Positions 7,654 to 37,704 of a stretch of DNA of 64,000 nt are shown piece after piece (position 1 is the first letter of the stretch; the number at the start of each line of letters is the position of its first letter). The notes below the pieces were generated by a model. The model searched no databases and was not told the origin of the DNA. It saw nothing but the letters and a program-made list of their open reading frames with translations. Origin of the DNA: Bacteroidota bacterium. Lineage in GTDB: Bacteria; Bacteroidota; Bacteroidia; Bacteroidales; PUMT01. The position numbers were made by a program, and so were the translations under genes. Location of the stretch: assembly GCA_003554865.1 (NCBI GenBank), contig PWHJ01000001.1:14046-78045 (forward strand), read 5' to 3'.

Positions 7654-8271
7654 ATGAAGAAAAAATTGCAGGAACTGACAGAGAAAATATATTCCGAAGG
7701 TGTAGAAAAAGCTAATCAGGAGGCGGAGGAGATAAAAAAGAATGCAAAGAAGGAGGCCGACGAGATGATAAAAAACGCTAAAAAGGAGTCGGCTCGCATA
7801 ATCGAGAAGGCTGAGCAGGAATCTGCCGAAATGAAAAAGAATGTTGAATCTGAGATTGAGTTGTCCTCAAAACAGGTTATTAGCGCAATTAAGCAGAAAA
7901 TAGCCTCACTGATCACTGCTAAGGCTGTTGAGGAACCGGTGGAGAAAGCTTTTTCCGACGAGGAGTTTATAAAGAAGATAATTGAAACTCTTGTAAACAA
8001 CTGGGAGCCGGGAAAAGATGCTTCAATTGACCTTTCTGTTATTCTGCCGGAAAAACAGGAAAAGGAGATGAAAGAATATTTTGAGAAAAAGCAGAAAAAA
8101 TTACTTAATGCAGGTCTTGAACTTAAGTTCGATGATACAATAGATGCAGGTTTGAAGATCGGGCCAAAAGACGGCAGTTACCAGATCAGTTTTACCGATA
8201 AGGATTTTGAGAACCTCTTCAAGGCTTACTTGCGTCCGAGGACAATCGAATTACTATATGGAGGTAAATAA
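7654..8271 (+). CDS. V/A-type ATP synthase subunit E
   Basis: Coiled-coil N-terminus (LTEKIYSEGVEKA), C-terminal YLRP; first gene of the V-ATPase operon. Confidence 0.9.
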   Translation: MKKKLQELTEKIYSEGVEKANQEAEEIKKNAKKEADEMIKNAKKESARIIEKAEQESAEMKKNVESEIELSSKQVISAIKQKIASLITAKAVEEPVEKAFSDEEFIKKIIETLVNNWEPGKDASIDLSVILPEKQEKEMKEYFEKKQKKLLNAGLELKFDDTIDAGLKIGPKDGSYQISFTDKDFENLFKAYLRPRTIELLYGGK

Positions 8272-9125
8272 TGTTTAAACGCAATTATTACTATCTGGTA
8301 GCAGGCTTGCCCGATATTGTTCTCGACCAGAAGAAAGTTTCATTACCGATAGGCGAGTTTAAGGATGAGCTTCGCTACCATTTGCATCCCGATGATTATT
8401 CTTTGTTGGAGCTGTTTTTTATGCCTCATGACCACTCCAACCTGCTTGGGCTTTTGCGTAAGAACCTTGAGGAGTTTGATGAGCTGGGGAAGTACCCGCG
8501 TGATGTTCTGGAGGCTGAAATAAAGGAGCCGGGTGAGACAGAAAATTATATTCAGCGCATAATTGAAGCCTACAAAAACGAAGAGCCCCTAATTGCTGAA
8601 CGATCATGGGAGGATCAGATAACCTGGCTTTACTACGATTTTGTCCGCTCAAGCCGAAACGCTTTTGTAAGGGAGTGGTTTGAGTTCGAAATGAACGTAA
8701 ACAATATTGTTGCAGCCGTCAATGCCAGGAAGCACAATTTTTCAAGGGAGAATATACTTATAGGTGACAATGAGATAGCGCAGGCGGTTAAAAAAAGTAC
8801 CCTTAAGGATTTTGGTATTTCGGCAGAGTTCCAGTGGATGGACAGGCTTATGAATATCCAGGAAAATGAAAATCTGCTGGAGCGCGAGTATGATATGGAC
8901 ATGCTCAGATGGGATTTTATTAATGATATAAACACCTTCAACTATTTTTCAATTGAATTAATATTGGGGTATGTTGTTAAGCTCCAGATGGTTGAAAGGT
9001 GGCTGAAGCTTGATGAGGACAGGGGCAGAGAACTGTTCAGAAAGCTTCTTGAAGATCTTGAAAAGAGTTATGAATTTCCTAAAGAATTTATGATAAATGA
9101 AAGAAAAAGAGTTGACCAAAGGTAA
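8271..9125 (+). CDS. DUF2764 family protein (putative V-ATPase subunit C)
   Basis: YYYLVAGLPD N-terminus; position between E and A as in Bacteroidota/Chlamydia V-ATPase operons. Confidence 0.8.
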   Translation: MFKRNYYYLVAGLPDIVLDQKKVSLPIGEFKDELRYHLHPDDYSLLELFFMPHDHSNLLGLLRKNLEEFDELGKYPRDVLEAEIKEPGETENYIQRIIEAYKNEEPLIAERSWEDQITWLYYDFVRSSRNAFVREWFEFEMNVNNIVAAVNARKHNFSRENILIGDNEIAQAVKKSTLKDFGISAEFQWMDRLMNIQENENLLEREYDMDMLRWDFINDINTFNYFSIELILGYVVKLQMVERWLKLDEDRGRELFRKLLEDLEKSYEFPKEFMINERKRVDQR

Positions 9126-10893
9126 GGTAACAACCATTATTGCAAACCTGGTGGTTGTCGAAGCAGAAGGACCTGTTTCCCAGAATGAAATCTGTTATGT
9201 TGACAGAGCTGGTGTAAAGTTAATGGCCGAGGTTATTAAGGTTTACGGAAAACAGGCTTTTATACAGGTTTTTGAGGAAACACGCGGTGTGAAGGTAGGC
9301 AGTGAAGTGGAATTTTCGGGAGGTATGCTTGAAGTTACTCTCGGACCGGGTGTTTTGTCAAGGAATTACGACGGACTCCAGCATGACCTTGATAAGATGA
9401 AGGGAGTGTTTTTGCAGAGCGGCGATTATACCGCCCCACTGGATTATGAGAAAGAATGGGATTTCAAGCCCCTTGCCAGTGAGGGTGACAAAGTCTCGGC
9501 AGGCGACTGGCTCGGGGAGGTAACCGAAAACACGATGCCTCATCGTATAATGGTGCCTTTTAAATTCACCGGTTCCTACAAGGTGAAGAGTGTTGTTAAG
9601 GAAGGCAAATATAAAGTTAATGATACCGTTGCCGTGCTGCTTGACTCAAAAGAGAGGGAAGTTCCCGTTACCATGATGCAGAAGTGGCCGGTTAAGGTTC
9701 CGATAACCAATTATACTGAAAAACCGAGGCCTTTTAAGCTGCTGGAGACAGGTATACGTACAATCGATACATTGAACCCCATGGTTGAGGGAGGTACCGG
9801 TTTTATTCCCGGGCCTTTCGGCAGCGGCAAAACGGTGCTTCAGCATGCCATATCCAAGGAGGCCGAAGCTGATATTGTTGTTATTGCAGCCTGCGGTGAA
9901 AGGGCTAACGAGGTTGTGGAGATCTTTGTCGAATTTCCTGAGCTGGAAGACCCCCGTACAGGGCGCAAGCTGATGGAGAGAACAACCATTATTGCCAACA
10001 CGTCAAATATGCCTGTTGCAGCGAGGGAGGCTTCAGTTTACACGGCAATGACCATAGCAGAGTATTACCGTGCAATGGGACTGAAGGTTCTGCTTCTGGC
10101 CGATTCTACTTCACGTTGGGCTCAGGCACTCAGGGAGATGTCGAACCGGATGGAGGAGCTGCCCGGTCCGGATGCCTATCCGATGGATTTGCCGGCAATT
10201 ATATCCAATTTCTACTCACGTGCAGGTTATGTGTACCTTAAAAACGGTGAAACAGGATCCATCACCTTTATAGGAACTGTTTCACCTGCGGGAGGTAACC
10301 TCAAGGAGCCCGTAACGGAGTCGACAAAAAAGACGGCACGCTGCTTTTACGCGCTCTCACAGCAAAGGGCCGACAGCAAGCGTTACCCAGCGATTGACCC
10401 TATCGACAGTTACTCAAAGTATATTGAGTATCCTGAGCTTCAGGACTATTTAAATAATAATATCAGCGAAGACTGGGTTGACAAGGTGATGGAAATTAAA
10501 AACTACCTGATAAGGGGCAAAGAGGCGGCCGAGCAGATCAATATCCTGGGTGACGACGGAGTTCCTGTCGATTATCATATTACATTCTGGAAAAGCGAGG
10601 TAATTGACTTTGTGGTTCTGCAGCAGGACGCTTTTGATGAGATTGACAAGTCATGCCCCATGAACAGGCAGAAATATATGCTCGACAAGGTCCTGGATAT
10701 TTATCATACCGATTTCAAATTTGAATCTTTTGAAGAGGTAAACCCATATTTTAAAAAGATAATCAATGAGTTCAAACAGATGAACTTCTCCGGGTTTGAA
10801 TCGGACGAGTTCAAAAGGCATGAGAAGGAGCTTGAGAAAATAGTGAAAGAAAGAAAAGTTGAGAAGGAAGAAGCTGTTGAGGAGAAAGAATGA
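9097..10893 (+). CDS. atpA: V/A-type ATP synthase subunit A
   Basis: Walker A GPFGSGKT; CGERANE, NTSNMPVAAREAS and DSTSRWAQALRE motifs. Confidence 0.97.
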   Translation: MKEKELTKGKVTTIIANLVVVEAEGPVSQNEICYVDRAGVKLMAEVIKVYGKQAFIQVFEETRGVKVGSEVEFSGGMLEVTLGPGVLSRNYDGLQHDLDKMKGVFLQSGDYTAPLDYEKEWDFKPLASEGDKVSAGDWLGEVTENTMPHRIMVPFKFTGSYKVKSVVKEGKYKVNDTVAVLLDSKEREVPVTMMQKWPVKVPITNYTEKPRPFKLLETGIRTIDTLNPMVEGGTGFIPGPFGSGKTVLQHAISKEAEADIVVIAACGERANEVVEIFVEFPELEDPRTGRKLMERTTIIANTSNMPVAAREASVYTAMTIAEYYRAMGLKVLLLADSTSRWAQALREMSNRMEELPGPDAYPMDLPAIISNFYSRAGYVYLKNGETGSITFIGTVSPAGGNLKEPVTESTKKTARCFYALSQQRADSKRYPAIDPIDSYSKYIEYPELQDYLNNNISEDWVDKVMEIKNYLIRGKEAAEQINILGDDGVPVDYHITFWKSEVIDFVVLQQDAFDEIDKSCPMNRQKYMLDKVLDIYHTDFKFESFEEVNPYFKKIINEFKQMNFSGFESDEFKRHEKELEKIVKERKVEKEEAVEEKE

Positions 10894-10950
10894 TAAGCAA
10901 GGCAGCTTTAAGAAGAGACGGAAATTTTAATCAATCAAGAAAATTAACCG

Positions 10951-12279
10951 ATGGAAACAAAAGCATTTCAGAAGGTATACACAAAAATAACCCAGATAAC
11001 CAAGGCAACATGTTCATTGAATGCTGAAGGCGTTGGTTATGGTGAGCTGGCTTCGGTCAGCGGACGCCTTGCACAGGTTGTAAAAATTGAAGGCGAAAAT
11101 ATTACCCTTCAGGTTTTCGGTGGTACAGAGGGTGTTCCCACAAATGCCGAAGTTGTTTTTTACGGCAGGCCACCTACTATAAAAGTTGGAGAAGAGCTGT
11201 CAGGAAGGTTTTTTAATGCTTTTGGTGAGCCGATCGACGGCGGGCCCGAAGTAGAAGGAGAGGAACGCGAAATAGGCGGGCCGTCGGTGAACCCTGTTCG
11301 CCGGAAGCAGCCTTCGGAGCTGATCGCAACCGGTATAGCCGGGATAGACCTTAACAACACCCTTGTAACGGGTCAGAAAATCCCCTTTTTTGCCGACCCG
11401 GACCAGCCTTACAACCAGGTAATGGCTATGGTTGCACTGCGTGCAAAAGCCGACAAGATCATACTTGCCGGAATGGGCCTGACAAATGACGATTATCTCT
11501 ATTATAAAAATGTTTTCGACAATGCAGGTGCACTCGACAGGATAATCAGCTTTGTGAACACAACTGAAGGTCCGCCGGTAGAGCGCCTTCTGGTTCCGGA
11601 TATGGCCCTGGCGGCAGCCGAATATTTTGCTGTTGACAAGAATCAGAGCGTGCTTGTTCTGCTTACCGATATGACTCTTTATGCAGACGCTCTAAGTATC
11701 GTCTCGAACCGGATGGACCAGATACCTTCCAAGGACAGTATGCCCGGATCGCTTTATTCGGATCTGGCAAGGATCTATGAAAAAGCGGTTCAGTTCCCTG
11801 ATGGGGGATCTATCACCATTGTTGCCGTAACAACACTTTCCGGAGGCGATATTACACATGCCATACCCGATAATACAGGATATATAACCGAAGGGCAGCT
11901 GTTTTTGAGACACGATACCGATATCGGAAAGGTGATCGTTGATCCTTTCCGTAGCCTGTCAAGGCTCAAGCAGTTGGTGATCGGAAAGAAAACCCGCGAG
12001 GATCACCCGCAGGTTATGAATGCGGCCGTGAGACTAAATGCCGATGCCGTAAATGCCCGCACCAAGCTTGAAAACGGTTTTGATCTTACCGAATACGACG
12101 AGCGTACACTTGGATTTGCCAAGGAGTACTCAAGGGAGCTGCTTGCAATTGATGTTAATATTGATGTCGATTCAATGCTTGATACGGGATGGAAATTGTT
12201 TGCCAAATATTTCAATAAGCCGGAAGTTGGCATACGTGAGGAGATGATAGAAAAATACTGGCCGAAAGAAGAGGAATAA
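10951..12279 (+). CDS. atpB: V/A-type ATP synthase subunit B
   Basis: GQKIPFF, PGSLYSDLA.IYEKA, HAIPDNTGYITEGQ and SLSRL motifs. Confidence 0.97.
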   Translation: METKAFQKVYTKITQITKATCSLNAEGVGYGELASVSGRLAQVVKIEGENITLQVFGGTEGVPTNAEVVFYGRPPTIKVGEELSGRFFNAFGEPIDGGPEVEGEEREIGGPSVNPVRRKQPSELIATGIAGIDLNNTLVTGQKIPFFADPDQPYNQVMAMVALRAKADKIILAGMGLTNDDYLYYKNVFDNAGALDRIISFVNTTEGPPVERLLVPDMALAAAEYFAVDKNQSVLVLLTDMTLYADALSIVSNRMDQIPSKDSMPGSLYSDLARIYEKAVQFPDGGSITIVAVTTLSGGDITHAIPDNTGYITEGQLFLRHDTDIGKVIVDPFRSLSRLKQLVIGKKTREDHPQVMNAAVRLNADAVNARTKLENGFDLTEYDERTLGFAKEYSRELLAIDVNIDVDSMLDTGWKLFAKYFNKPEVGIREEMIEKYWPKEEE

Positions 12280-12324
12280 TACAGTGAGAAGGGAAAGGAA
12301 AATTGATAAATAAACGCTAAGACA

Positions 12325-12921
12325 ATGGCAATTAAATTCCAGTATAATAAAACCTCACTGCAGCGACTTGAGAAACAGTTAAGTATAAGGGTCAAGGCGC
12401 TTCCTACAATTAAGAACAAGGAGGCGGCTCTTCGCATGGAGGTTAAAAAGGCGAAGGACAAGGCTGAAGAGCTTGACAGGAAGGTCGGGGAGAAGATGAA
12501 GGAGTATGAGCATATGATGCGCCTGTGGTGTGAGTTTGATCCCGGTATTGTCAGCATTAAAAAGGTCGAGTCCTCAGCCAAAAAAATAGCCGGTGTTTTA
12601 ACACCCGTTCTTGAGGGTATTGAATTTGAAATTAAGGATTTCAGCCTGTTCAATAAACCCGATTGGTTCCTTGACGGCATAGAGATCCTTAAAGAGCTTT
12701 CAAAACTGGTGATGGAGCGTGATTTTTTCATACGAAAAATGAAAATACTTGTTTATGCAAGGAAAAAGACCACGCAAAAGGTGAACTTATATGAAAAAGT
12801 TCAGATCCCGGCTTATGAAGATGCTATAAGAAAAGTGAAACGTTTTCTGGAGGATGAAGAAAACCTTTCAAAATCCGCCCAGAAAATTGTTAAAAAACGT
12901 CAGCAGGAGGTAGCACTATGA
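12325..12921 (+). CDS. atpD: V/A-type ATP synthase subunit D
   Basis: ALPTIKNKE and KTTQKVNLYEKVQIP motifs; operon position. Confidence 0.93.
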   Translation: MAIKFQYNKTSLQRLEKQLSIRVKALPTIKNKEAALRMEVKKAKDKAEELDRKVGEKMKEYEHMMRLWCEFDPGIVSIKKVESSAKKIAGVLTPVLEGIEFEIKDFSLFNKPDWFLDGIEILKELSKLVMERDFFIRKMKILVYARKKTTQKVNLYEKVQIPAYEDAIRKVKRFLEDEENLSKSAQKIVKKRQQEVAL

Positions 12922-14744
12922 TAACTCCCATGAAAAAATATTCATTCCTTGTATACCATCAGGAATATGAGGAGTTTCTTGAAAAGCTCAAGGAAATCGG
13001 TGTGCTTCATGTTATAGAGAAAAAAACGGAATTGCCCGAAGATATAAGAGAGCAATATCAGTATATTGACCAGGTTGAAAAATGCATAAAGTTCCTGAAA
13101 AAACGGGAGATTGAGCCTGAAGAGGGCTCCAGTGAGCAAAACGGGGAGGAGTTGTTCAATGAAATAACCTCTTTGCAGCAGGAAGAGGAACAAAAGAAAC
13201 ATTCTCTTAAAGCTTTGCAGAAGGAGATCAATGAGCTCTGGAACTGGGGGGACTTTTCTCTTGATGTAATTGAAAAGCTTGAGGCGAACGGTTTAAATGT
13301 GCGTTTTTTTATAGCACCCTCAAGACAATTTGATCCTAAATGGCATCATGAATATACTCTTGAAGAAATAAGCGCCGAGGCAGGCAATATTTATTTTGTG
13401 GTAATACAAAAGGAAGATGAACAGATAGATATTGAAGCCGAAGAGGTTAAAAAACCCAAAAAAACTCTTTCGCAGCTTATTGAATCCAAAAAGGAGATTG
13501 AACAAAGCATTGAGCAAACAGGGAAGCGTTTTGACCAGCTTGCAAAAACCGCTGTTCCCGCTCTGGAAAGATACAAGACCTCCCTTATTGAAAATCTCGA
13601 AGACAGGAAAACAAAATTCAACACCTCGAGCGAGGCGGAGGACAAGCTCAGGGTAATTGAAGGGTGGGTTCCCGAAGAAAAGGAGGAGGAAATAAATAAG
13701 TACCTGGATGAAACGGGTGCGGTTTATATTGTATCCACTCCTTCTGGGGAGGAGGTAAAAAAAGTTCCGATCCAGCTTAAAAACAAAAAATTTCCGGAGA
13801 AATTTGAGGTGCTCAGCGAGCTTTATTCACTCCCCAAGTATACCGAGCTGGATATGACTCCGTTTTTCGCCCCCTTTTATGCGCTGTTTTTCGGTTTCTG
13901 TCTTGGTGATGCAGGTTATGGCATACTTATGGCCATAGCGGCCCAGGTGGGGAGGATGAAAATGAAAAAGGAGATGAAAAAGGTTATGGGCCTTGTTTTT
14001 TATCTTGGAATTGCCACCCTGTTTTTCGGATTGCTTACAGGTACGGTGTTCGGGGTGGACCTTTATGCATATGATCTCCCTTTTTATGCATCTGTGAATG
14101 AATATATAGAAGCCCACGGATATGAGGATGTCAACTATGTCCTGTTTTACCTTTCACTTATATTGGGAGGTATACAGATACTTTTCGGTATGGTGCTAAA
14201 GGCTGTAAACGAGATAATGCAGTTTGGGTGGAAGTTTGCAGTAGGTACGTTAGGCTGGATTATTCTGGTGGTTGGAATGGTTGCAATATACGCTGTTAAT
14301 GAGTTTGCCGCGGTACCAATGGAAACTCTCACACCTGCAATCTACACTGTTCTGATAGTCGCAGGACTTATGATACTTTTCCTGAACAACCTGAACAGGA
14401 ATGTGATGGTAAACTTCGGTCTGGGCCTGTGGAACACTTATCAAACTGTAACGGGCTTAATAGGAGACCTTCTCTCGTATATTCGTCTTTTTGCACTTGG
14501 TGTATCGAGTGCGATACTCGGCTATGTGTTTAATAGCCTTGCCGTTGCAATGAGCGGCAGCATCCCGGTTTTGAGCATACTCATCATGGTTGTCATACTT
14601 GTTATAGGACACAGTATAAACCTGTTTATGTCTGGACTGGGTGCGTTTGTTCACCCCTTACGCCTCACTTTCGTAGAATTTTACAGAAATGCTGGATTTG
14701 CAGGAGGCGGAAAGCCATATAACCCTTACAGAAAATTAATTTAA
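12918..14744 (+). CDS. atpI: V/A-type ATP synthase subunit I (a)
   Basis: Soluble N-terminus then TM domain with GDAGYG, SYIRLFALG (essential Arg) and HPLRLTFVEF. Confidence 0.95.
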   Translation: MITPMKKYSFLVYHQEYEEFLEKLKEIGVLHVIEKKTELPEDIREQYQYIDQVEKCIKFLKKREIEPEEGSSEQNGEELFNEITSLQQEEEQKKHSLKALQKEINELWNWGDFSLDVIEKLEANGLNVRFFIAPSRQFDPKWHHEYTLEEISAEAGNIYFVVIQKEDEQIDIEAEEVKKPKKTLSQLIESKKEIEQSIEQTGKRFDQLAKTAVPALERYKTSLIENLEDRKTKFNTSSEAEDKLRVIEGWVPEEKEEEINKYLDETGAVYIVSTPSGEEVKKVPIQLKNKKFPEKFEVLSELYSLPKYTELDMTPFFAPFYALFFGFCLGDAGYGILMAIAAQVGRMKMKKEMKKVMGLVFYLGIATLFFGLLTGTVFGVDLYAYDLPFYASVNEYIEAHGYEDVNYVLFYLSLILGGIQILFGMVLKAVNEIMQFGWKFAVGTLGWIILVVGMVAIYAVNEFAAVPMETLTPAIYTVLIVAGLMILFLNNLNRNVMVNFGLGLWNTYQTVTGLIGDLLSYIRLFALGVSSAILGYVFNSLAVAMSGSIPVLSILIMVVILVIGHSINLFMSGLGAFVHPLRLTFVEFYRNAGFAGGGKPYNPYRKLI

Positions 14745-14749
14745 ATTAA

Positions 14750-15226
<477 letters not shown>

Positions 15227-15336: not shown

Positions 15337-18273
15337 ATGAGACAAAAGAGTCTGTTAGCGGGTTTTAATTCTTTGCCGGAGTCGTTACGCAGCAGTTTTG
15401 ATTTCACTCATGTTAAACGGCTTATTTATGCAACTGATGCGTCGGTTTACAGGGAAGTACCGATGGCTGTCTGTACACCCCGTAACGTTGAAGATGTAGC
15501 TGAACTTGTCAGGTTTGCCTCTGCAGCTGGTTTGCCGGTAATCCCACGCGGGGCGGGGACATCCCTTGCGGGTCAGGTTGTGGGAAACGGGATTGTGGCT
15601 GATATTTCAAGGTATATGAACTCAATACTTGAGGTAAACAGCCGCGAAAAATGGGCAAGGGTGCAGCCCGGTGTTGTACTGGATGATCTTAACCGCCATT
15701 TAAGTCAATACGGACTTTTTTTTGGTCCGGAAACATCATCGGCCAACCGCTGTGTTATAGGAGGTATGGCAGGCAACAATGCCTGTGGCTCCCGTTCGCT
15801 TGTTTACGGAACCACCAGGGATCATGTTATAAGCCTGAAAGCTGTGCTCAGTGACGGCAGCCGGGTTGAATTCCGTCCCCTTACCGCCCCGGAGTTTGAA
15901 CAAAAATGTAACCTTGATTCGCTTGAAGGTGAAATATACAGGCAAACCAGAGATATGCTCTCAAGCCCTTCTGTCAGGGATGAGATCAGGAAAGAATACC
16001 CCGATCCCTCAATTAAAAGGAGAAATTCCGGTTATGCGCTTGACTTGCTGATTGATTCGCAGCCTTTTTTAGAAGGGGGAGAGAAATTTAATTTTTCCCG
16101 CATCATTTGCGGATCAGAGGGGACCTTGGCTTTTGTGACCGAAATAAAGATTAACCTGGTTTCCCTTCCTCCGCCTGAAAAAGTGGTGATGTGCATTCAC
16201 CTGAAGAGTATAGAGGAGGCGTTTTATGCGAACCTTGTTGCCCTCAGATTCAGACCCGATGCAGTTGAAATGATGGATGAGATAATACTCTCATGTACTG
16301 CCGGCAATATTGAACAGAAAAAGAACAGGTTTTTTATCAAAGGAGATCCTTCTGCACTGCTTATTGTGGAATTTACCGCGTCAACGCGCAAGGAGCTTAA
16401 GGAGAAAACAGCCTCTCTTGAAAAACAGATGCGCAGCGAAGGGTATGGTTACCATTTTCCCCTGGTTTTCGGCGAGGATATTAAAAGGGTCTGGAATCTT
16501 AGAAAAGCCGCTCTCGGGTTATTGTCTAACCTGCCCGGAGATTCACGGCCGGTCTCCGTTATAGAGGATACCGCGGTTGACGTTAATAAGCTGCCCGGCT
16601 ATGTTTCAGAGTTTCGCAATATTCTTTCCTCTTATGGTAAAAGGTGTGTGTTTTATGCCCATATAGGCTCGGGTGAGCTGCATCTGCGACCTGTTCTTAA
16701 CCTCAAGGACAGTGAAGATGTTTCAGTATTCAGAAAGCTGGCAAGAGATGTTGCCTTGCTGGTAAAAAAATACGGGGGGTCGTTAAGTGGTGAGCACGGG
16801 GACGGCAGGTTGCGGGGAGAGTTTCTTCCACTTGTACTGGGAAAAAATAACTATGAGCTGCTTTGCAGGGTAAAGCGGTGCTGGGACCCGGAAAATGTGT
16901 TCAACCCCGGAAAAATAACAGGCACTGTACCGATGGATACAAACCTGCGTTATCAGCCGGGATGGTCACACAAAGAGCCTGCTACAGTTTTTGACTTTAC
17001 CTCTACTGCAGGCATTCTTCGTGCGGCCGAGAAATGCAGTGGTTCGGGCGACTGCAGGAAATCGCCCGGTGCTAAAGGAGTTATGTGCCCCAGTTACATG
17101 GCCACCGGTGATGAATATAGCACTGCAAGGGCAAGGGCAAATATACTAAGGGAGTATTTAACAAATTCGGATAAAAAAAACAGGTTTGATCACATTGAGA
17201 TACTGGAGGTCTTGGATTTTTGTCTCATGTGTAAGGGGTGCAAAACTGAATGCCCCGGCAGTGTGGATATTGCAAAATTAAAAAGCGAATTCCTTCAGCA
17301 TTATTACGATGCCAACGGGATTCCTTTGCGGGTGAGAATGATTGCAAATATTGTTTTTTTCAACCGCCTGGGCTCGCTTTGGCCGGGGGGCTACAATTTT
17401 TTTCTGAAGAACCCTCTTTTTTCTTATCTTCTGAAAAAGATGGCTGGTTTCGCCCCTCAAAGAAACTTTCCCTCACTTCATGAGACCACCCTGAGAAATT
17501 GGGCACACTCAAACCCTTTTGAGCTTACTCCCGCGGAGCCGAAAGGTAGTGTCATACTTTTTACCGATGAGTTCACCGATTATAATGATACCCTTCTGGG
17601 CATTTCAGCTGTCAGGTTGCTTGTTCGTCTTGGATACACTGTACGGTTAGTATCCCATCTTCAAAGCGGCAGAGTGCTTATATCCAAAGGATTGCTCAGA
17701 AAGGCCCGCAAAAAGGCTCGTTTCAATATTATGGCTTTAAATAAAGCTTCAGGTGGAAAATTACCTGTTGTCGGTATAGAGCCTTCGGCAATTCTGACCC
17801 TGCGTGACGAGTATCCTGAGCTGGCAGGGGAGGAGCTTGAAGAAAGTGCCCTGAGGCTTGCAAATTCTTCATTTATGATAGAGGAGTTTATAAATATGGA
17901 AATGGAAAAAGGGAAGATAACCAAAGAAGAGTTTACAAGTAAGCCTGCAAAAATATACCTGCATGGGCACTGCCAGCAAAAAGCGGTGTCATCAACAGCA
18001 CCTTCCCTCAAGATATTATCTTTTCCTGAAAATTTCAGTGCACAGGAGATCCCCTCCGGCTGTTGCGGGATGGGCGGAGCTTTTGGCTATGAAAAAGAGC
18101 ATTACGAGCTTTCTTTTAAAATTGGGGAGTTGGTACTTTTTCCGGAGATACGTTCCCTTCCCGAAGATGCTGTAATAGCTGCCCCGGGTACAAGCTGCAG
18201 GAGCCATATATTTGACGGAACTTCACGAAAAGCTTTGCACCCGGCGGAAATCCTGCACAGGGCGCTTTTGTGA
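15337..18273 (+). CDS. FAD-binding and Fe-S-binding oxidoreductase (GlcD/YdiJ-like 2-hydroxyacid dehydrogenase with CCG domains)
   Basis: PRGAGTSLAGQ FAD motif, GSEGTL, GEHGDG, CxxxGxC and CxxCxxCxxxCP clusters, HGHCQQ and CCGMGG CCG motifs. Confidence 0.88.
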   Translation: MRQKSLLAGFNSLPESLRSSFDFTHVKRLIYATDASVYREVPMAVCTPRNVEDVAELVRFASAAGLPVIPRGAGTSLAGQVVGNGIVADISRYMNSILEVNSREKWARVQPGVVLDDLNRHLSQYGLFFGPETSSANRCVIGGMAGNNACGSRSLVYGTTRDHVISLKAVLSDGSRVEFRPLTAPEFEQKCNLDSLEGEIYRQTRDMLSSPSVRDEIRKEYPDPSIKRRNSGYALDLLIDSQPFLEGGEKFNFSRIICGSEGTLAFVTEIKINLVSLPPPEKVVMCIHLKSIEEAFYANLVALRFRPDAVEMMDEIILSCTAGNIEQKKNRFFIKGDPSALLIVEFTASTRKELKEKTASLEKQMRSEGYGYHFPLVFGEDIKRVWNLRKAALGLLSNLPGDSRPVSVIEDTAVDVNKLPGYVSEFRNILSSYGKRCVFYAHIGSGELHLRPVLNLKDSEDVSVFRKLARDVALLVKKYGGSLSGEHGDGRLRGEFLPLVLGKNNYELLCRVKRCWDPENVFNPGKITGTVPMDTNLRYQPGWSHKEPATVFDFTSTAGILRAAEKCSGSGDCRKSPGAKGVMCPSYMATGDEYSTARARANILREYLTNSDKKNRFDHIEILEVLDFCLMCKGCKTECPGSVDIAKLKSEFLQHYYDANGIPLRVRMIANIVFFNRLGSLWPGGYNFFLKNPLFSYLLKKMAGFAPQRNFPSLHETTLRNWAHSNPFELTPAEPKGSVILFTDEFTDYNDTLLGISAVRLLVRLGYTVRLVSHLQSGRVLISKGLLRKARKKARFNIMALNKASGGKLPVVGIEPSAILTLRDEYPELAGEELEESALRLANSSFMIEEFINMEMEKGKITKEEFTSKPAKIYLHGHCQQKAVSSTAPSLKILSFPENFSAQEIPSGCCGMGGAFGYEKEHYELSFKIGELVLFPEIRSLPEDAVIAAPGTSCRSHIFDGTSRKALHPAEILHRALL

Positions 18274-18325: not shown

Positions 18326-18356
18326 TTTGCTTTTGAGCGGGTAAATATTAGATTTG
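18326..18356 (+). promoter_or_regulatory. Bacteroidota sigmaA promoter for the SSS / CoA-transferase / OFOR operon
   Basis: TTTG (18326-18329), 19-nt spacer, TAGATTTG (18349-18356): canonical -33/-7 arrangement. Confidence 0.65.
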
Positions 18357-18385
18357 CAAAAGTTATATAATATACTGATAAAAAA

Positions 18386-19852
18386 ATGAACATTTATCTT
18401 ACTGTTATACTTGGTTATTTTCTGTTTGTAATTCTTATTTCTCTTTTTACCAGAAAGCTTGCAAGCCGTTCTTCGGTCGATTTTCTGATTGCAGGGCGAA
18501 ATCTGGGGATTATTGCCTGCGCCGTTGTTGTTGCTTCCGAATGGCTGGGGGGTATGAGTACTATAGGTGTCAGTGAGAATGCATTCAATTCGGGAACAAT
18601 GCAGCCGATCCTCTACAATATTTCCACCGCCCTAGGGATGATAATTATCGGGTTTACCGTTGCACGCAAATACAGGGAAAAAAACGTGCATACAGTGAGT
18701 GAGATGCTTGAGCATCTTTTCGGCAGACGAACCAAAAGTGTCTCAGCTGTGGCATTTTTGCTTGCATATCTGACACTCTCGTATGTGCAGCTGCAAACGT
18801 GCGCATCAGTTATTGCCCCCCTTTTCGATATTAGCTGGCTGTATGCAGTTCTTATTTCAGCCGCTATTATAACAATTTATACATATGTGGGGGGGATGCA
18901 TGCACTGGCCATTACCGGAATTATTCATGTTGTTGCCATGTTTACCGGAATCGGTATTGCGCTGATTATAGGCCTTGACAAAATAAACGGATTTGAATCC
19001 CTTTCTCAAAATCTTGTGGAGCTTGGCTCTCCCGCAAACTGGTACAACCCTTTCAGCGGCGACTTTTCCTATGCCGTCAGTCTGGTTGTAGGGGGAGTGC
19101 TTGGAGGTATGGCCGGACAGGCAAGTATACAACCAATATTTGCTGCAAAGAGTGCCTCCACGGCCAAACGCTCCGCCATTTTATCAAGTCTCATTATTGC
19201 TCCCTTTGGTATTATGGTTGCCATTTTGGGGCTTATCGCAAGCACCGGTATGTTTTTCCCCGTTGAAGGCCCGCAGAGCCCTCTGTGGAACGAACTGACA
19301 GAATCGATCAATGCCAAGATGGTGCTTCCGGCACTTATGACAACACCGGAGTTTATTCATCCGGTTTTGGGCGGACTGGCACTGGCCGGTACACTTGCTG
19401 CCATATTGTCGACCGTTGGGCCTGTGAACTTTGCAGTAGTAACGATAGCAACCAAGGATATTTACCATGGCCTGATCAACAAGTCGGCCGTTGACCAAAA
19501 AGTTGTGTCAACCGCACGCAGGCTTGTTATTCTGGTCAATCTGGTAGTTGTTCCCCTTGCTATTCTGGTACAAAGGGAAGTACTAGATGCGGCGTATATT
19601 TCTTATGCCATAAGGGCGATAGGGGCCATAGTTATAATGCTGGGCATCTATTTAAGAAGCTGGATATCCTCCGATGCTGTTCGCTTTGCCTTTGCCGTTG
19701 GCACAATTGCCATACTTATAAGCATTATAGGAAAAGAGGCCGGCTGGTTTGCAGTAGAAGACACCTATGTGGGTGTGGGCTCGGCCGTTATACTTATTAT
19801 ACTGGGCAACATATGGTCGCGTCTTAAAAAGAGGAATACCCAAATAGAGTGA
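18386..19852 (+). CDS. Sodium:solute symporter (SSS) family transporter
   Basis: About 13 TM helices; DFLIAGRNLG, YTYVGG and LAAILST motifs. Confidence 0.9.
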   Translation: MNIYLTVILGYFLFVILISLFTRKLASRSSVDFLIAGRNLGIIACAVVVASEWLGGMSTIGVSENAFNSGTMQPILYNISTALGMIIIGFTVARKYREKNVHTVSEMLEHLFGRRTKSVSAVAFLLAYLTLSYVQLQTCASVIAPLFDISWLYAVLISAAIITIYTYVGGMHALAITGIIHVVAMFTGIGIALIIGLDKINGFESLSQNLVELGSPANWYNPFSGDFSYAVSLVVGGVLGGMAGQASIQPIFAAKSASTAKRSAILSSLIIAPFGIMVAILGLIASTGMFFPVEGPQSPLWNELTESINAKMVLPALMTTPEFIHPVLGGLALAGTLAAILSTVGPVNFAVVTIATKDIYHGLINKSAVDQKVVSTARRLVILVNLVVVPLAILVQREVLDAAYISYAIRAIGAIVIMLGIYLRSWISSDAVRFAFAVGTIAILISIIGKEAGWFAVEDTYVGVGSAVILIILGNIWSRLKKRNTQIE

Positions 19853-19881
19853 TCCTAATTGTAAAGGTTAACTGATTTATT

Positions 19882-21099
19882 ATGGATAAAAAAACTGACC
19901 TTCCCCTTGAGGGGATTACCGTTCTGGAGCTTGCAAACGTGCTTGCAGGTCCCAGTGTCGGCATGTTTATGGCCGAACTGGGAGCACAGGTGCTGAAGGT
20001 TGAAAATGTGAAAAGCTCCGGTGATGTTACACGGCACTGGAAACTTTCAACCGAAGATCCAAAAACCGATATTTCAGCCTATTTCTCATGTGTTAACTGG
20101 GGCAAGAAGTCCCTTGCCCTTGACCTGTCAACAGATGAAGGCCTGGAAATTATTTACGACATCGCCCGCAAATCTGATGTGGTCCTTGTGAGCTACAAGC
20201 CCGGTGATGCCGAAAAGCTGAAAGTTGATTATCCAGGGCTCAAAGAGATTAACCCGGATATAATATTTGCACATGTCACCGGGTATGGTCTTATGACCAG
20301 GAGAGCGGGCTATGATGCAATTATACAGGCTGAAAGCGGGTTCACCTACATGAACGGTGAGCCCGAAGGGAATCCGGTTAAAATGCCTGTTGCCCTGATG
20401 GATGTACTTGCCGCGCATCAGTTAAAGGAGGCCATACTGCTTGCACTTTGGTCACGTGAGCGTCATGGGGGTGGTCAATATATTGAATCCTCACTTTACA
20501 AGTCTGGTGTTGCCTCCCTTGCAAACCAGGCTACCAACTGGCTGGTTGGGGAAGCTATACCAAAGCGAATGGGCTCGGACCATCCCAATATAGTACCTTA
20601 CGGGACAATATTCAGGACTGCCGACGACAAAGAGATAGTGCTGGCAGTTGGCACTGACAAGCAGTTCAGGGAGTTGTGCAAACTTTTAGGTAAACCGGAA
20701 CTGGCAGATGACAAGCGTTTTGAAAAGAATCAGGAGAGGGTTAAAAACAGCGGCCTGATAAAGTCGTTGCTGCAGGAACTAATTGGCAAATACACTCGTG
20801 AGGATATTCTTGAAAAAATGAGTGAAAAAGCTGTTCCGGCAGGCGGAGTTTACAACATGAAGGAGGTTTTTGAAACCGCCCACGCACAGGAGATGCTTTT
20901 TGAGGAGCCTTTGAATTCGGGAACTATCAAAGGGGTCCGCTCAGTCTCATTCACCTGCGATAATATTGCAAGCATGGAGAAGCTGTCGCGGCCTCCCCGT
21001 TACGGAGAACACACAAGAGATATATTGTCGGGTTTACTGGGGCTTGAAGATGACAGAATTGAAGGTCTTATTAATAAAGGAGTGATATATGCAAAATAA
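19882..21099 (+). CDS. Class III CoA-transferase (CaiB/BaiF family)
   Basis: PLEGITVLEL..VLAGP, N.GKKSLALDL, GYDAIIQAESG, catalytic Asp in PVALMD, PP.YGEHT C-terminus. Confidence 0.93.
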   Translation: MDKKTDLPLEGITVLELANVLAGPSVGMFMAELGAQVLKVENVKSSGDVTRHWKLSTEDPKTDISAYFSCVNWGKKSLALDLSTDEGLEIIYDIARKSDVVLVSYKPGDAEKLKVDYPGLKEINPDIIFAHVTGYGLMTRRAGYDAIIQAESGFTYMNGEPEGNPVKMPVALMDVLAAHQLKEAILLALWSRERHGGGQYIESSLYKSGVASLANQATNWLVGEAIPKRMGSDHPNIVPYGTIFRTADDKEIVLAVGTDKQFRELCKLLGKPELADDKRFEKNQERVKNSGLIKSLLQELIGKYTREDILEKMSEKAVPAGGVYNMKEVFETAHAQEMLFEEPLNSGTIKGVRSVSFTCDNIASMEKLSRPPRYGEHTRDILSGLLGLEDDRIEGLINKGVIYAK

Positions 21100-22216
21100 C
21101 AGTGTTGAAAAAAAAGTGTTAATTGAAGGGTCGCTTCTTATAACAGAGTCTATGGCCCGTGCCGGAGCCGATTCATTTATAGGTTATCCTATAACCCCGG
21201 CTAATCTTTTGTATCTGTACGGAAGCCGCAGAATGCCTCTTATGCTGCCTGCTCCGGATGAAATTACCACCCTTCAGTGGATGTCAGGACTGGCAGCTAC
21301 AGGAAGGATCCCGGTAACCGCCACATCATTCCCCGGCTTTGCGCTTATGGTGGAGTCAATTAATATGGCTTTTATGATGGAGCTGCCGATGGTGATAGTT
21401 TTGGTGCAGCGCCTGGGTCCTGCGACCGGTACTGCTACATGCGGTTCACAGGGTGATATTTCGCTTCTGAGGGGAATGATATCGGGAGGCCATCAGCTGC
21501 CGGTTTTGTGCACTTCTTCATTTGAGGATTGCTGGAGCTTACCTGCCAGGGCGGTATCACTTGCCGCAGAGCTTAGAACTCCGGTGGTGCTCCTTACTTC
21601 CAAGGAAGAGGTAATGACACAAAAGAGCTTTGATATGAGCCTGCTTGAAGAGATCACCCCTGTTAAGCTGAAATCATATGAGGGTGAAGAGACATATCGA
21701 CCCTATATGGTTAAAGAAGGTGAACTGTCACCTCCATTTTTGCCGGTTGCTAACGGAAAATGGCAGGTAAGGCTGAACGCTTCAACACATGATACCAACG
21801 GAATCCTTCAGCATTCCAATGAAGAGGCAATGGCCAATACAAGGCGCCTTGATGCAAAAGCCAGGGAAAAACTGAAGGATTACACATATTACCAGCTTGA
21901 TGAGCAGGAGGGTGCCCGCACTATTGTTGTTTCATACGGAATAACCGCATTGGCTGCAAGGGATGTGGTTTATAGTATGAGAGAAAAAGGCAAAAAGGTT
22001 TCACTGCTTGTTGTAAAAACTATCCTGCCTGTTCCCGCTGTTTACGCTGATATAATGGCCAATTACCATAAGGTGATTGTAGCAGAGGAAAATATAAATG
22101 CACAGCTTGTTGATCTTATATACGGGGTGCAAAGACCCGAAAATGTAGTGCCGGTCGGATCAATCGGCAAAATGATAACCCCGGGTGAAATTTTAAAAGA
22201 GGAGGACTGCTTATGA
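21089..22216 (+). CDS. 2-oxoacid:ferredoxin oxidoreductase alpha subunit (divergent)
   Basis: GYPITP, DEI, TATS(F)PG and QR.GP.TG motifs; overlaps the CoA-transferase stop. Confidence 0.88.
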   Translation: MQNNSVEKKVLIEGSLLITESMARAGADSFIGYPITPANLLYLYGSRRMPLMLPAPDEITTLQWMSGLAATGRIPVTATSFPGFALMVESINMAFMMELPMVIVLVQRLGPATGTATCGSQGDISLLRGMISGGHQLPVLCTSSFEDCWSLPARAVSLAAELRTPVVLLTSKEEVMTQKSFDMSLLEEITPVKLKSYEGEETYRPYMVKEGELSPPFLPVANGKWQVRLNASTHDTNGILQHSNEEAMANTRRLDAKAREKLKDYTYYQLDEQEGARTIVVSYGITALAARDVVYSMREKGKKVSLLVVKTILPVPAVYADIMANYHKVIVAEENINAQLVDLIYGVQRPENVVPVGSIGKMITPGEILKEEDCL

Positions 22217-23478
22217 ACGGTATTTTGAAAACCACTGCATTGCCTTACTGCAAGGGGTGCGGACATGACCTTATTGCCAAAAAGAGTGCTGCAGCGCTTG
22301 AAAAGCTTCAGTTTACTCCCCTTGATGTAGTTGTGGTAACAGACATAGGGTGTCACGGGATAATAGACAAATGCCTTAATACTCATACTGTCCACGGTTT
22401 GCACGGAAGGTCAGTTGCACTTGGTGCCGGCATAACTTTCGGACTGGACAATCCGGAAAAAAAAGTGCTGGTCTTTATAGGTGACGGCGGATCCACCATA
22501 GGGTTGCAGCACATAATGGAGGCTGCGCGTTTGAATCTGAACATGACCGTCGTTGTCCATAACAATATGCTATACGGTATGACAGGCGGGCAAACCAGCG
22601 GTTTAACCCCTCAGGGTTTTTGCACCACAACATCGGCTGACGGGAACCCCTTTTCCGGTTATGATATTTGTGAGCTTACCTCAACGGCTGGTGCTTCATA
22701 TTCAGCACGCATAATGGGAGTTGGCGACATAACCCCCAGTCTGGCCGAAGCTTTTGCCGTTAAAGGCTTTTCCCTTGTCGAGATTATGGAGATTTGTCCC
22801 AGCTACGGGGTGAAGCTCAACCCCCGCCGCAAGCTTTCGGAAATAGTGGAAAGCTCGGGAAGGAAAATTGGGGTTTGGAGAAATGAAAAGAAAAGTTTTA
22901 TCATGCAGCAGGGTAAAAAGAAAAACGACCTGTTGGCCTCAGTAGAGGAGGTAAAAAATGATTTTCCAGCCACTCTGGAAAAAGATATTTCCCTTGTTAT
23001 AAGCGGTTCCGCCGGAGAAGGTGTGCAATCGGCCGCAACCCTTCTTGCCCGTGCCGCGATGCGTTCCGGCTGTCATGTTACACAAAAGGGAAGCTATCCT
23101 GTAACCGTAGGCGTGGGATTTTCCACAGCCGAGGTAAATCTTTCCCCTGCTCCTATTAATTTTCACGGGATAGATGTTCCCGATGTAGCCGTTGTGACTT
23201 CCGGTGATGGTTTGACCCACAGCAAAAAACGCATTGAAGGTATGAAGAAAGGTGTGCTTTTCATCGATGAAAGTCTTGATACCCCCGAAACCGGAGCTGA
23301 GGTGGTAAGACATGATTTCAGGTCTGTCGGCGCCCGCTCGGCAAGCCTTTATGCACTTTTGTTCTTTGCTAACCATACAGGTTTAATCGATTACGAAGCA
23401 ATTTTCAGAACAATCCAGGAGAGCGGTCTCAAAGAAAAAGTCCCTGTTGAAAAGCTCAGGGAAAAATTGTTGCAGTAG
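22213..23478 (+). CDS. 2-oxoacid:ferredoxin oxidoreductase beta (TPP-binding) subunit fused to gamma domain
   Basis: CKGCGH, DIGC, HGR and GDG...NNMLYGMTGGQ TPP motif; C-terminal half starts with gamma-type GSAGEGV. Confidence 0.88.
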   Translation: MNGILKTTALPYCKGCGHDLIAKKSAAALEKLQFTPLDVVVVTDIGCHGIIDKCLNTHTVHGLHGRSVALGAGITFGLDNPEKKVLVFIGDGGSTIGLQHIMEAARLNLNMTVVVHNNMLYGMTGGQTSGLTPQGFCTTTSADGNPFSGYDICELTSTAGASYSARIMGVGDITPSLAEAFAVKGFSLVEIMEICPSYGVKLNPRRKLSEIVESSGRKIGVWRNEKKSFIMQQGKKKNDLLASVEEVKNDFPATLEKDISLVISGSAGEGVQSAATLLARAAMRSGCHVTQKGSYPVTVGVGFSTAEVNLSPAPINFHGIDVPDVAVVTSGDGLTHSKKRIEGMKKGVLFIDESLDTPETGAEVVRHDFRSVGARSASLYALLFFANHTGLIDYEAIFRTIQESGLKEKVPVEKLREKLLQ

Positions 23479-23574: not shown

Positions 23575-23976
23575 ATGTCCTTTTTTCGGTGTAAAAAAAA
23601 TAGCAAATCCTCTGCCAGGGAGTTTAAGCGTGCAAAAAAGGCAATGAAGGTGGCCGGGAAAAGATTACGCAGGGCTGACAGGTATATGAAAAACGGCAAG
23701 AGGCAGCAATTTTTTGAGCAAATGCTTAAAGCGCAATGGGGGTACCTCGGCGACAGGTTTTCTATTTCTTATGCAAAGCTTGACAGGCAAAAAGTAAAGG
23801 AAGAGATGCAGAAAAATAATATTCCCGAAAAGGATATAAAGGCTGTTTTTGAAATAATAAGTATCTGCGAGTTTGCCAGAGAAGCCCCGTCAACAGTACA
23901 TGCCGATATGCGAAAAATACTCGATCAGACCCTGAACCTCATTAATACTACAGAAGAGAAGTTGAGCCAAAGCTAA
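23575..23976 (+). CDS. Small basic protein resembling the isolated C-terminal domain of BatD
   Basis: A.KRL..A, F..M.KA.WGYL.D.F.I and CEFAR.AP pattern recalls BatD C-termini; no signal peptide or TM segment. Confidence 0.6.
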   Translation: MSFFRCKKNSKSSAREFKRAKKAMKVAGKRLRRADRYMKNGKRQQFFEQMLKAQWGYLGDRFSISYAKLDRQKVKEEMQKNNIPEKDIKAVFEIISICEFAREAPSTVHADMRKILDQTLNLINTTEEKLSQS

Positions 23977-35349: not shown

Positions 35350-36351
35350 ATGGATTTACTTGAAAATATCAAAAAAAGTGCCATCCGGCATTCAAAACGT
35401 ATTGTATTGCCGGAATCGCTTGAAGAACGAACACTTAAGGCCGCCGATATATTACTTAAGGAAAATATTGCTAAGATCATTCTTACTGGTGATCCTGCAA
35501 AAATTCAGGAGGAAGCCAAAAAGCACGGCCTTTCAGAAATATCCCGCGCAGAAATTGTCAATCCCCCGGATCATCCCAATAAGGAGAAATATATTGACAT
35601 GATGGTTGAGATTCGCAAGAAGAAGGGACTGACGCGTGAAGAGGCGGAAAAGCTTATAGAGAATCCCCTGTACTTGGCTACCCTGATGATAAAGGCGGGT
35701 GATGCTGACGGGGAAGTTGCCGGCGCCATGAATTCAACCGGTGATGTACTTCGTCCGGCATTCCAGTATGTAAAGACGATGCCAGGAATAAGCGTGGTTT
35801 CGGGTGCCTTTATAATGATTTTGAAGGATAAGGAGTTTGGTGAAGAAGGTTTGATGATATTTGCCGATTGTGCAGTTCATCCCGATCCGACAGAAAGGGA
35901 GCTTGCCGAAATTGCAGTTGCAACGGCACGCACAACAAAAGCCATTGCTGGTTTTGAGCCTAAGGTAGCTATGCTGAGCTTTTCGACCAAAGGAAGTGCA
36001 AAGCACGAGATGGTTGACAAAGTGGTGAACGCCACAAATATCGCCCGTGAAATGGAGCCGGAGCTGAAAATTGACGGTGAATTGCAGGCTGATGCTGCAA
36101 TTGTTGAAAAAATTGGTCAAAGTAAGGCACCTGACAGTAAAATTGCAGGCAATGCCAATGTATTGGTTTTCCCGAATCTTGAATCAGGCAATATTGCCTA
36201 CAAGCTTGTACAGCGCCTGGCTCATGCGGAAGCTGTCGGACCTGTACTTCAGGGTATGGCGGCCCCGATCAACGATCTCTCCAGAGGCTGTTCAGTGAGC
36301 GATATTGTAAATTTGGTTGCCATTACGGCAAATCAGGCAGCAAGCAGATAA
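35350..36351 (+). CDS. pta: Phosphate acetyltransferase
   Basis: RIVLPE, FADCAV, AMLSFSTKGSA, DGELQADAA and GP.LQG..PINDLSRGC. Confidence 0.96.
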   Translation: MDLLENIKKSAIRHSKRIVLPESLEERTLKAADILLKENIAKIILTGDPAKIQEEAKKHGLSEISRAEIVNPPDHPNKEKYIDMMVEIRKKKGLTREEAEKLIENPLYLATLMIKAGDADGEVAGAMNSTGDVLRPAFQYVKTMPGISVVSGAFIMILKDKEFGEEGLMIFADCAVHPDPTERELAEIAVATARTTKAIAGFEPKVAMLSFSTKGSAKHEMVDKVVNATNIAREMEPELKIDGELQADAAIVEKIGQSKAPDSKIAGNANVLVFPNLESGNIAYKLVQRLAHAEAVGPVLQGMAAPINDLSRGCSVSDIVNLVAITANQAASR

Positions 36352-36412
36352 AACGAAAAAATTAATTTTTTAATTAAATATAAATAAAACTGGCATATAA
36401 AAATTAAGTACA

Positions 36413-37621: not shown

Positions 37622-37704
37622 AGCCTTGTACATGAGGAGATTGTATATAACGTTATTGCGGGTAAGCCGGCAGTTGATTCAGGCGGCTTATCAACTGTGA
37701 CTTT

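Follow-up and report, generated by a model that had tools for sequence, protein, structure and literature searches.

Amino acid fermentation in Thermococcales and clostridia combines a 2-oxoacid:ferredoxin oxidoreductase (OFOR) with Ptb/Buk, an ADP-forming acyl-CoA synthetase or a coenzyme A (CoA)-transferase, by which a 2-oxoacid is converted to its acyl-CoA and then to a free acid and ATP. Here, we describe a four-gene operon at positions 18,326–23,478 of a 64,000-nucleotide stretch of Bacteroidota DNA (the whole stretch analysed, hereafter the window; contig PWHJ01000001.1 of assembly GCA_003554865.1, positions 14,046 to 78,045), encoding a sodium/solute symporter of the SSS family, a class III CoA-transferase and the two chains of an OFOR. 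The operon appears to follow the same fermentative logic, set apart by a lysine-derived dicarboxylic C6 substrate and by having a dedicated SSS carrier. We put a probability of roughly 0.45 on the whole proposal, namely that lysine is fermented to glutarate with a gain of reduced ferredoxin and ATP while the symporter exports the glutarate; the core of the proposal, with the symporter's role set aside, we judge from the sequences to be probable.

In the proposed route, lysine would be converted via saccharopine to 2-aminoadipate semialdehyde by LKR and saccharopine dehydrogenase (SDH), encoded on contigs C102 and C215 of the source genome (G000; 3.2 Mb, 96% complete, assigned to the order Bacteroidales by the named sources of its close homologues). 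A candidate tungsten-dependent aldehyde:ferredoxin oxidoreductase (AOR, contig C64) would then yield 2-aminoadipate, and an aminotransferase would give 2-oxoadipate. From there, the operon OFOR would produce glutaryl-CoA, CO2 and reduced ferredoxin, the operon transferase would convert glutaryl-CoA and succinate to glutarate and succinyl-CoA, succinyl-CoA synthetase (present on contig C219) would draw ATP from the latter, and the Na+ symporter would export glutarate. The intermediates are those of saccharopine/2-aminoadipate lysine breakdown (AASS, ALDH7/P6C dehydrogenase, the 2-oxoadipate dehydrogenase complex and GCDH), of which LKR and SDH homologues occur here, but the NAD-linked steps would become ferredoxin-linked (tungsten AOR and OFOR) and, without GCDH, the carbon would leave as glutarate. 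The route also differs from clostridial lysine fermentation, which ends in butyrate and acetate. As all parts belong to known kinds of protein, the novelty would lie in specificity, chain layout and pathway. Genes, families, synteny and presence or absence are what was observed, and it is from these that we infer every substrate and direction. In the literature searched, where subscription journals were thinly covered and supplements excluded, neither a dedicated 2-oxoadipate:ferredoxin oxidoreductase nor this gene set nor a lysine-to-glutarate fermentation was found among the matches listed; the exit lacking glutaryl-CoA dehydrogenase, the alternative entries to the route and the AOR candidate described below are added here.

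The accessible text of PMC13768988 lists OGOR, VOR, IOR and OOR as members of the OFOR family; 2-oxoadipate figures there solely through side activities of two enzymes from Aeropyrum (A. pernix, 37% and 52%). The best solved relatives of both operon chains are Magnetococcus marinus OGOR (MmOGOR; 6N2N/6N2O), Sulfolobus tokodaii OFOR (5B46-5B48) and Helicobacter pylori OorDABC (8YS5), at about 30% identity. The alpha chain (21,089–22,216, forward strand, 375 aa) carries domains I and II (PF01855 and PF17147, over the Pfam cut-offs). The last gene (22,213–23,478, forward strand, 421 aa) is an N-terminal beta chain fused to gamma, a layout that the earlier note on this DNA did not describe: by Pfam, domain VI with thiamine pyrophosphate (TPP) and the proximal 4Fe-4S cluster comes first (PF02775 at 44-191), and the CoA-binding domain III lies behind it (PF01558 at 267-366). 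Domains I, II, III and VI of the superfamily, as listed in the accessible part of PMC13768988, are thus all present by Pfam. Together with YPITP, the TPP motif, four cluster cysteines and the lack of a ferredoxin domain V in the operon, they make the enzyme resemble the two-subunit single-cluster OFORs; in two-subunit OFORs, however, domain III precedes alpha according to the same text, whereas here it follows beta.

At the residue level, the cluster cysteines C13, C16, C47 and C195 of beta, its GDGG motif and N118 are invariant in 40/40 sequences. In alpha, YPITP, Glu58 and Arg108 are kept (Arg108 in 121/121 and the YPITP threonine in 119/121), and we take Arg108 and this threonine to bind the 2-oxoacid carboxylate in OFORs. 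The operon enzyme differs from the solved OFORs in having DIGC for GIGC, Ile/Leu for Arg63, YGMTGGQ for YGLTKGQ and xTGxAT for STGLPT; the Leu-Pro of KorA is replaced by a small residue followed by Ala. Alpha Ala116, Thr117 and Lys172 occur in 121/121 members, Lys172 being absent from the solved KorA relatives, and D44, D52, M123 and G125 mark the family in beta. The Ile/Leu, the small residue with Ala and Lys172 would fit a longer substrate pocket.

The source genome encodes four further OFORs, labelled by gene layout and motifs as KOR-type (C10), VOR-type (C237), single-chain PFOR-like (C102) and IOR-like (C40). With only 27–32% identity to the KOR- and VOR-type enzymes, the operon OFOR appears by sequence to be a fifth, distinct family beside these housekeeping enzymes, and these identities give no sign of the clustering with KOR, POR or VOR that the earlier note had named as grounds for dropping its idea. 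In a tree of the beta domain, which leaves out 11 loci of the operon's own family and fragmentary rows, the OFOR family forms one clade (support 0.96) apart from KorB and VorB, these being the only two outgroups. The NCBIfam cut-offs for KOR/OGOR, VOR, POR and IOR are not reached (top scores of 221 vs 483 and 210 vs 411 for alpha, and of 145 vs 364 for beta), nor does any of the four operon proteins reach the cut-off of a named NCBIfam family. Oxalate oxidoreductase was rejected as an identity on far lower family scores.

What the enzyme acts on is best approached through the genes that adjoin it elsewhere. Neighbours were clustered for 135 OFOR loci, and marker genes were counted within 7 kb at the 117 loci outside the operon's own family. 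At least one marker is present at 30 of these 117 loci (none at 87), against a rough chance ceiling of about 3. The decarboxylating glutaryl-CoA dehydrogenase GcdH leads with 18 loci, followed by homoisocitrate dehydrogenase-like (6), homoaconitase-like (4) and P6C dehydrogenase (4) genes, SDH (2) and the non-decarboxylating Acd (2). One to three members per marker were checked: GcdH matches 2EBA at E 6e-132 and human GCDH at 2e-122 (next family 2e-79), Acd reaches 754 and 795 bits (cut-off 470), P6C dehydrogenase 788, 805 and 827 (cut-off 730), and the homoaconitase of locus L065 883 (cut-off 530), while the proteins labelled homoisocitrate dehydrogenase-like have that family as their top match, yet score below its cut-off. 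The marker-bearing loci are scattered over distinct branches (Bacteroidales, Ignavibacteria, Desulfobacterales, Syntrophobacterales, Marinimicrobia and Myxococcota), and the window's own branch includes the GcdH- or SDH-adjacent members L085, L167, L168 and L084.

On one strand, L170 encodes 3-hydroxyacyl-CoA dehydrogenase, thiolase, acyl-CoA dehydrogenase and GcdH followed by all four cassette genes; L084 has the four-gene cassette and then SDH; L153 brings together an aminotransferase, P6C dehydrogenase, the OFOR and GcdH; and in L157 the OFOR forms a row with Acd and glutaconyl-CoA-decarboxylase-type genes, P6C dehydrogenase being encoded upstream. Within an evenly drawn sample of the order, GcdH occurs in 14/20 OFOR-bearing genomes vs 47/380 others, kin not being independent. 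Since the neighbours converge on 2-oxoadipate and glutaryl-CoA, conversion of the former to the latter is the likely reaction, and 2-oxoadipate is quite probably the OFOR substrate. The earlier note had tentatively offered the series 2-oxoadipate to glutaryl-CoA to glutarate; neighbourhoods, genome co-occurrence and the best matches of the transferase make it the best-supported reading.

Other gene combinations occur at some related loci. In a Desulfobacterales symbiont record (L162:2318-15025), an OFOR of this family stands with genes for Acd and carboxyltransferase, and 2-hydroxyglutaryl-CoA dehydratase-type genes run divergently from them. At L133:8823-20321, L114, L236:11414-17408 and L065:5304-10856, the OFOR family or the symporter and transferase lie near homoisocitrate dehydrogenase-like and homoaconitase-like genes, with citrate-lyase relatives in L133 (ATP-citrate-lyase-like) and L236 (CitF-like). 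Possibly, these sets form a homocitrate lyase route that would connect glutaryl-CoA with 2-oxoglutarate and acetyl-CoA, perhaps in the reductive sense.

The operon is conserved, both in its own family and beyond it. Its four coupled open reading frames, with a 29-nt gap, an 11-nt overlap and an ATGA overlap, were reproduced from the sequence exactly as first described. The beta–gamma gene occurs in 18 of the 19 other genomes of the same family, and all four genes stand in order at 13/18 of these loci, the remaining five being interrupted by contig ends; the sole family genome without the OFOR (G010) lacks the transferase as well. Among 72 metagenome loci of the symporter (a redundant set), 44 continue with transferase and OFOR and five with the transferase up to a contig end, four have the transferase only, two the OFOR only and 11 neither, and six stop after the symporter. 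The genes are therefore syntenic elsewhere, so that the lack of synteny which the earlier note said would refute its idea is not seen. Beyond the family, the OFOR is present in 20/400 genomes of the order sample and 27/400 of a phylum sample, and its loci with a named source (the best 80 of at least 599) come from many phyla of anaerobes. Most of the distant members are bare alpha and beta–gamma pairs.

The second gene (19,882–21,099, forward strand, 405 aa) encodes the class III CoA-transferase (PF02515, 330 bits, over the Pfam cut-off) and contains both motifs reported for it, GYD.I.QAESG and G..H..IVPY. Its best family among seven from NCBIfam is succinate-glutarate CoA-transferase (NF052585, 286 bits vs a cut-off of 750), and its best solved matches are 9ZAV (CaiB-type, succinate complex, 39%) and human SUGCT (34%); oxalate, carnitine and mesaconate transferase identities were rejected on far lower family scores. 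The predicted model (pLDDT 84.9) superposes with TM 0.86–0.87 on the top matches and 0.87 on SUGCT, so that SUGCT, the Agrobacterium CaiB Atu2127 and NF052585 are the closest by both family and fold. In SUGCT, Asp212 is catalytic and Trp91 and Tyr102 line the pocket, according to the accessible text of PMC10871334. These align to Asp174 (the predicted catalytic residue), Trp53 and Tyr67 of the operon transferase, invariant in 16/16 sequences. The Agrobacterium enzyme is described as reversible and as accepting succinyl- or acetyl-CoA in the part of PMC7645780 available. Unlike these relatives (34–39% identity), the operon transferase is proposed to work toward free glutarate and in conjunction with an OFOR, and no biotin pathway was found in the source genome. 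Action on glutaryl-CoA seems reasonably likely from these resemblances and from the genomic context.

The fate of glutaryl-CoA can be followed across genomes. GcdH was not found in the source genome (best match 31%), and among 39 OFOR genomes, 14 have only GcdH, 20 only the transferase, three both and two neither (two matches cut by contig ends were counted as present, and matches of 27–33% were not counted). Four genomes of unstated completeness with symporter and OFOR have Ptb and/or Buk nearby instead of the transferase, and these also lack GcdH; the OFOR family pairs with Ptb/Buk in L087, L090 and L137. As GcdH and transferase largely alternate, glutaryl-CoA would be either oxidised further or exchanged with a free acid, and given the missing GcdH in the source genome, the thioester would there be cashed in as glutarate and succinyl-CoA.

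Upstream of 2-oxoadipate, the human AASS domains are the best or near-best match of the genome's LKR and SDH (E 3e-42 and 2e-85). SDH is found in 32/39 OFOR genomes vs 20/39 controls. Lysine epsilon-aminotransferase (LAT), a catabolic enzyme, seems to serve as the other entry: among 24 genomes, 19 have SDH without LAT and five have LAT over its cut-off without SDH, a count that leaves out five other SDH-less genomes, four of which are 70–75% complete. P6C dehydrogenase over the cut-off is missing from 29/39 OFOR genomes, the source genome included, and AOR occurs in 33/39 vs 10/35 controls; one or the other is present in 37/39 and neither in 2/39, and of five additional genomes, G810 lacks both. 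In L259-L262 (4 of 17 AOR regions fetched), a 720-aa AOR is encoded on the same strand as P6C dehydrogenase and in one cluster with it, making the AOR on C64 a candidate for the semialdehyde step by association.

No biosynthetic use of these intermediates came to light. Lysine synthesis via LysW/LysX was rejected (LysX over cut-off in 0/5 genomes, the source genome included), as was a biotin route via BioZ, the source genome having no BioB over cut-off and no BioD; it also has no homoisocitrate dehydrogenase-like gene beyond LeuB, while LysA is present twice over cut-off. Taken with LKR/SDH, the SDH/LAT alternation and the AOR, this favours lysine breakdown with glutarate as end product, and we consider it probable from gene content that the operon runs in the catabolic direction.

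The 720-aa AOR subfamily (C64:3678-5834; L259-L262) is common in these Bacteroidales, also clusters with a tungstate-binding protein gene and is a candidate amino-acid-semialdehyde:ferredoxin oxidoreductase. A second AOR-like gene (C8:2393-6675) adjoins a second succinyl-CoA-synthetase-like pair, which falls below the cut-off.

The first gene (18,386–19,852, forward strand, 488 aa) encodes the SSS symporter (PF00474, 130.9 bits vs a Pfam cut-off of 22.8), which stays below the cut-offs of PutP (83 vs 516), PanF (72 vs 328) and ActP (56 vs 750). Its solved relatives are distant only (best E 8.6e-18) and its Atlas neighbours all PF00474, so neither source was informative on cargo. Its partner genes across loci encode the transferase, Ptb/Buk or, in L214 and L223, a class I CoA-transferase and thiolase. 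Because it travels with an acid/CoA-ester step, a free diacid, namely glutarate, is suggested as its cargo; glutarate or a related C5–C6 acid is likely, and glutarate itself slightly better than an even bet on this genomic linkage. Such a cargo would imply uptake in GcdH-bearing genomes and efflux, unusual for SSS proteins, in GcdH-less ones. The proposal is at its weakest where the symporter's cargo and direction are concerned. The earlier note's self-contained module importing one specific acid has lost ground, given that the genome has its own lysine-to-semialdehyde genes, the symporter is usually missing where the OFOR is present and the symporter follows the acid/CoA-ester step.

Another uncharacterised catabolic cluster is seen at L214:1411-4682, L223:3051-9498 and L224, where behind a close homologue of the symporter come genes for a nitrilase-family protein, a 518–527-aa protein without Pfam match, the subunits of a class I CoA-transferase, an aminotransferase of class III and a thiolase.

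A number of observations weigh against the proposal. Markers are absent from the 87 loci mentioned, markers and thresholds were picked after the neighbours had been seen, and many GcdH loci belong to related Bacteroidales. In the Bacteroidales sample, the OFOR is absent from 47/61 GcdH-bearing genomes, and 20 of these 47 have neither OFOR nor SucA. A predicted alternation between the OFOR and 2-oxoglutarate dehydrogenase failed, SucA being present in 23/24 OFOR-bearing Bacteroidales, the source genome among those with SucA. At the position of MmOGOR beta Arg63, which presumably helps to bind the C5 carboxylate, the family has Leu (77) or Ile (52 of 131); alpha Lys172 is a candidate replacement. 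The transferase scores well under the NF052585 cut-off, carries Asn/Ser at position 19, which is Arg in SUGCT and four distant rows, and has Asn215 in place of SUGCT His253. Of the 20 transferase-only genomes, 17 belong to one family (three lineages in all), again not independent, and absence calls rest on draft genomes, several being metagenome-assembled and 70–90% complete. SDH is frequent regardless, as the controls indicate; P6C dehydrogenase is missing from the source genome; the AOR is placed by association only, and in 4/17 AOR regions the 720-aa form lies near P5C-dehydrogenase-like genes; and the step from 2-aminoadipate to 2-oxoadipate has no assigned aminotransferase gene there. Finally, SSS proteins are normally importers, and the symporter stands with neither partner at 11 of its 72 loci and with the OFOR only at two.

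Several of these points lend themselves to other explanations. The chemistry could be the same while the symporter imports a precursor (2-aminoadipate, 2-oxoadipate or 2-hydroxyadipate) and glutarate exits otherwise; in the operon's own family, a YdiJ-like flavoprotein might then make 2-oxoadipate from a 2-hydroxyacid. SSS proteins being importers as a rule, the symporter standing directly before the OFOR with no transferase in L091, L215 and L247, and a YdiJ-like gene directly upstream at 10/12 family loci with upstream DNA all agree with this, and an outside source would bypass the P6C dehydrogenase gap of most cassette genomes. Yet the symporter accompanies only one (L170) of the 18 GcdH-adjacent OFOR loci, where an importer would be useful too, symporter–transferase pairs exist without the OFOR (4/72 loci), the genome has an internal lysine route, and the YdiJ link is confined to the family and three close metagenome loci, with a promoter-like site intervening. 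We regard precursor import as rather unlikely, yet as the chief rival. Should the OFOR instead act on another 2-oxoacid or on many (short aliphatic or hydrophobic ones), the cassette would ferment that acid and the glutaryl links would hold only in some branches. The missing basic residue at the Arg63 position and the marker-free loci would suit this, as would Ptb/Buk, which commonly go with branched and short acyl-CoAs. Archaeal OFORs of broad specificity are also on record (Table 1 of PMC13768988, in its accessible part). Against it, the genome already has KOR-, VOR-, PFOR- and IOR-type enzymes, the operon's own branch contains the GcdH- and SDH-adjacent loci, and six unrelated marker families meet at one metabolite pair, which leaves a broader or different specificity improbable.

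The operon might also run in reverse, importing glutarate, activating it to glutaryl-CoA and carboxylating this reductively, with the resulting 2-oxoadipate serving biosynthesis or the reaction serving to dispose of electrons. Uptake with activation is usually encoded by a transporter gene beside a CoA-transferase gene, and CaiB and SUGCT work in this direction as far as their accessible descriptions go; OFORs are reversible, and in L133 and L236 the OFOR family or the cassette is accompanied by genes resembling those for homoisocitrate dehydrogenase, aconitase and citrate lyase. However, no use for the product was found in the source genome, which has LysA and lacks LysX, BioB, BioD and a homoisocitrate dehydrogenase-like gene beyond LeuB, and the catabolic LAT replaces SDH in 5/5 SDH-less genomes tested, so that we give reverse operation a small chance, about on a par with that of a different 2-oxoacid or a little less. 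Aldehyde-oxidising OFORs exist, although none came up in a search of the literature, and the operon enzyme could oxidise 2-aminoadipate semialdehyde to 2-aminoadipyl-CoA, from which the transferase would free 2-aminoadipate for export; that would fill the P6C dehydrogenase gap, and the invariant acidic D44 and D52 could bind the amine. The retention of Arg108 and the YPITP threonine, with the carboxylate-binding role assumed above, speaks against it, as do the AOR, which covers the gap, and the OFOR's neighbours (P6C dehydrogenase at 4 loci, GcdH or Acd at 20), making semialdehyde oxidation very improbable.

If the lysine-to-glutarate proposal is true, a substrate would be assigned to a wide, unstudied OFOR family, anaerobes would be seen to handle 2-oxoadipate without the NAD/lipoate complex, and there would be an oxygen-free lysine route to glutarate, making peptide-fermenting Bacteroidales natural glutarate producers and a glutarate source for syntrophs and sulfate reducers. 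The enzyme, presumably reversible, would offer C5-to-C6 carboxylation and matter to glutarate/adipate-type chemistry as well as to CO2 fixation. Taken to its full extent, with entry by SDH or LAT, a tungsten AOR, a dedicated 2-oxoadipate OFOR, ATP from the transferase or Ptb/Buk and Na+-coupled glutarate export through the SSS protein that is itself possibly energy-conserving, this would amount to a third lysine fermentation, a generalisation that we find somewhat doubtful.

Turning to the surroundings of the operon, a putative Bacteroidota-type promoter-like site (TTTG-N19-TAGATTTG, with TTTG at −33 and TAGATTTG at −7) lies at 18,326–18,356 on the forward strand and ends 29 nt before the first start codon, judged by what we take to be the Bacteroidota consensus. 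The full pattern has a genome-wide rate of 0.0037 per 112 nt; it recurs upstream of the operon in 2/18 relatives, the two closest (L016 and L017), and the −7 box alone in 11/18. A scan for sigma-70 promoters and terminators gave chance-level counts and listed no site at the start or end of the operon, so that the canonical promoter of the earlier note survives as this Bacteroidota-type site and finds no counterpart in the sigma-70 scan. The GC content of the operon genes (0.46–0.48) is close to that of the flanks (0.44–0.47).

The site separates the cassette from the YdiJ-like gene (15,337–18,273, forward strand), a 978-aa FAD/Fe-S oxidoreductase whose best NCBIfam match is YdiJ (D-2-hydroxyglutarate dehydrogenase, 625 vs a cut-off of 1350). 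At the two family loci where it is not directly adjacent, it is one gene away in one and absent in the other. It was rejected as a fixed fifth member on account of its narrow distribution. Some relatives (L021) have a 2-hydroxyacid dehydrogenase two genes above it, and a link to 2-hydroxyadipate is possible. Immediately 5' of the YdiJ-like gene lies a V/A-type ATPase operon (7,654–15,226, forward strand; labelled by eye).

On the other side of the cassette, a 133-aa open reading frame (23,575–23,976, forward strand) has no Pfam or NCBIfam match and is absent from the relatives' loci; to our eye it resembles the C-terminal end of BatD and is perhaps a remnant. Further downstream, at a distance of 12–23 kb (35,350–39,909 and 42,332–46,597, forward strand), stand genes in a row that resemble Pta, Ack, Ptb and Buk, along with one for a fusion of CoA-activase and DUF2229 (1422 aa); the Ptb/Buk-like genes could provide a second exit for acyl-CoAs.

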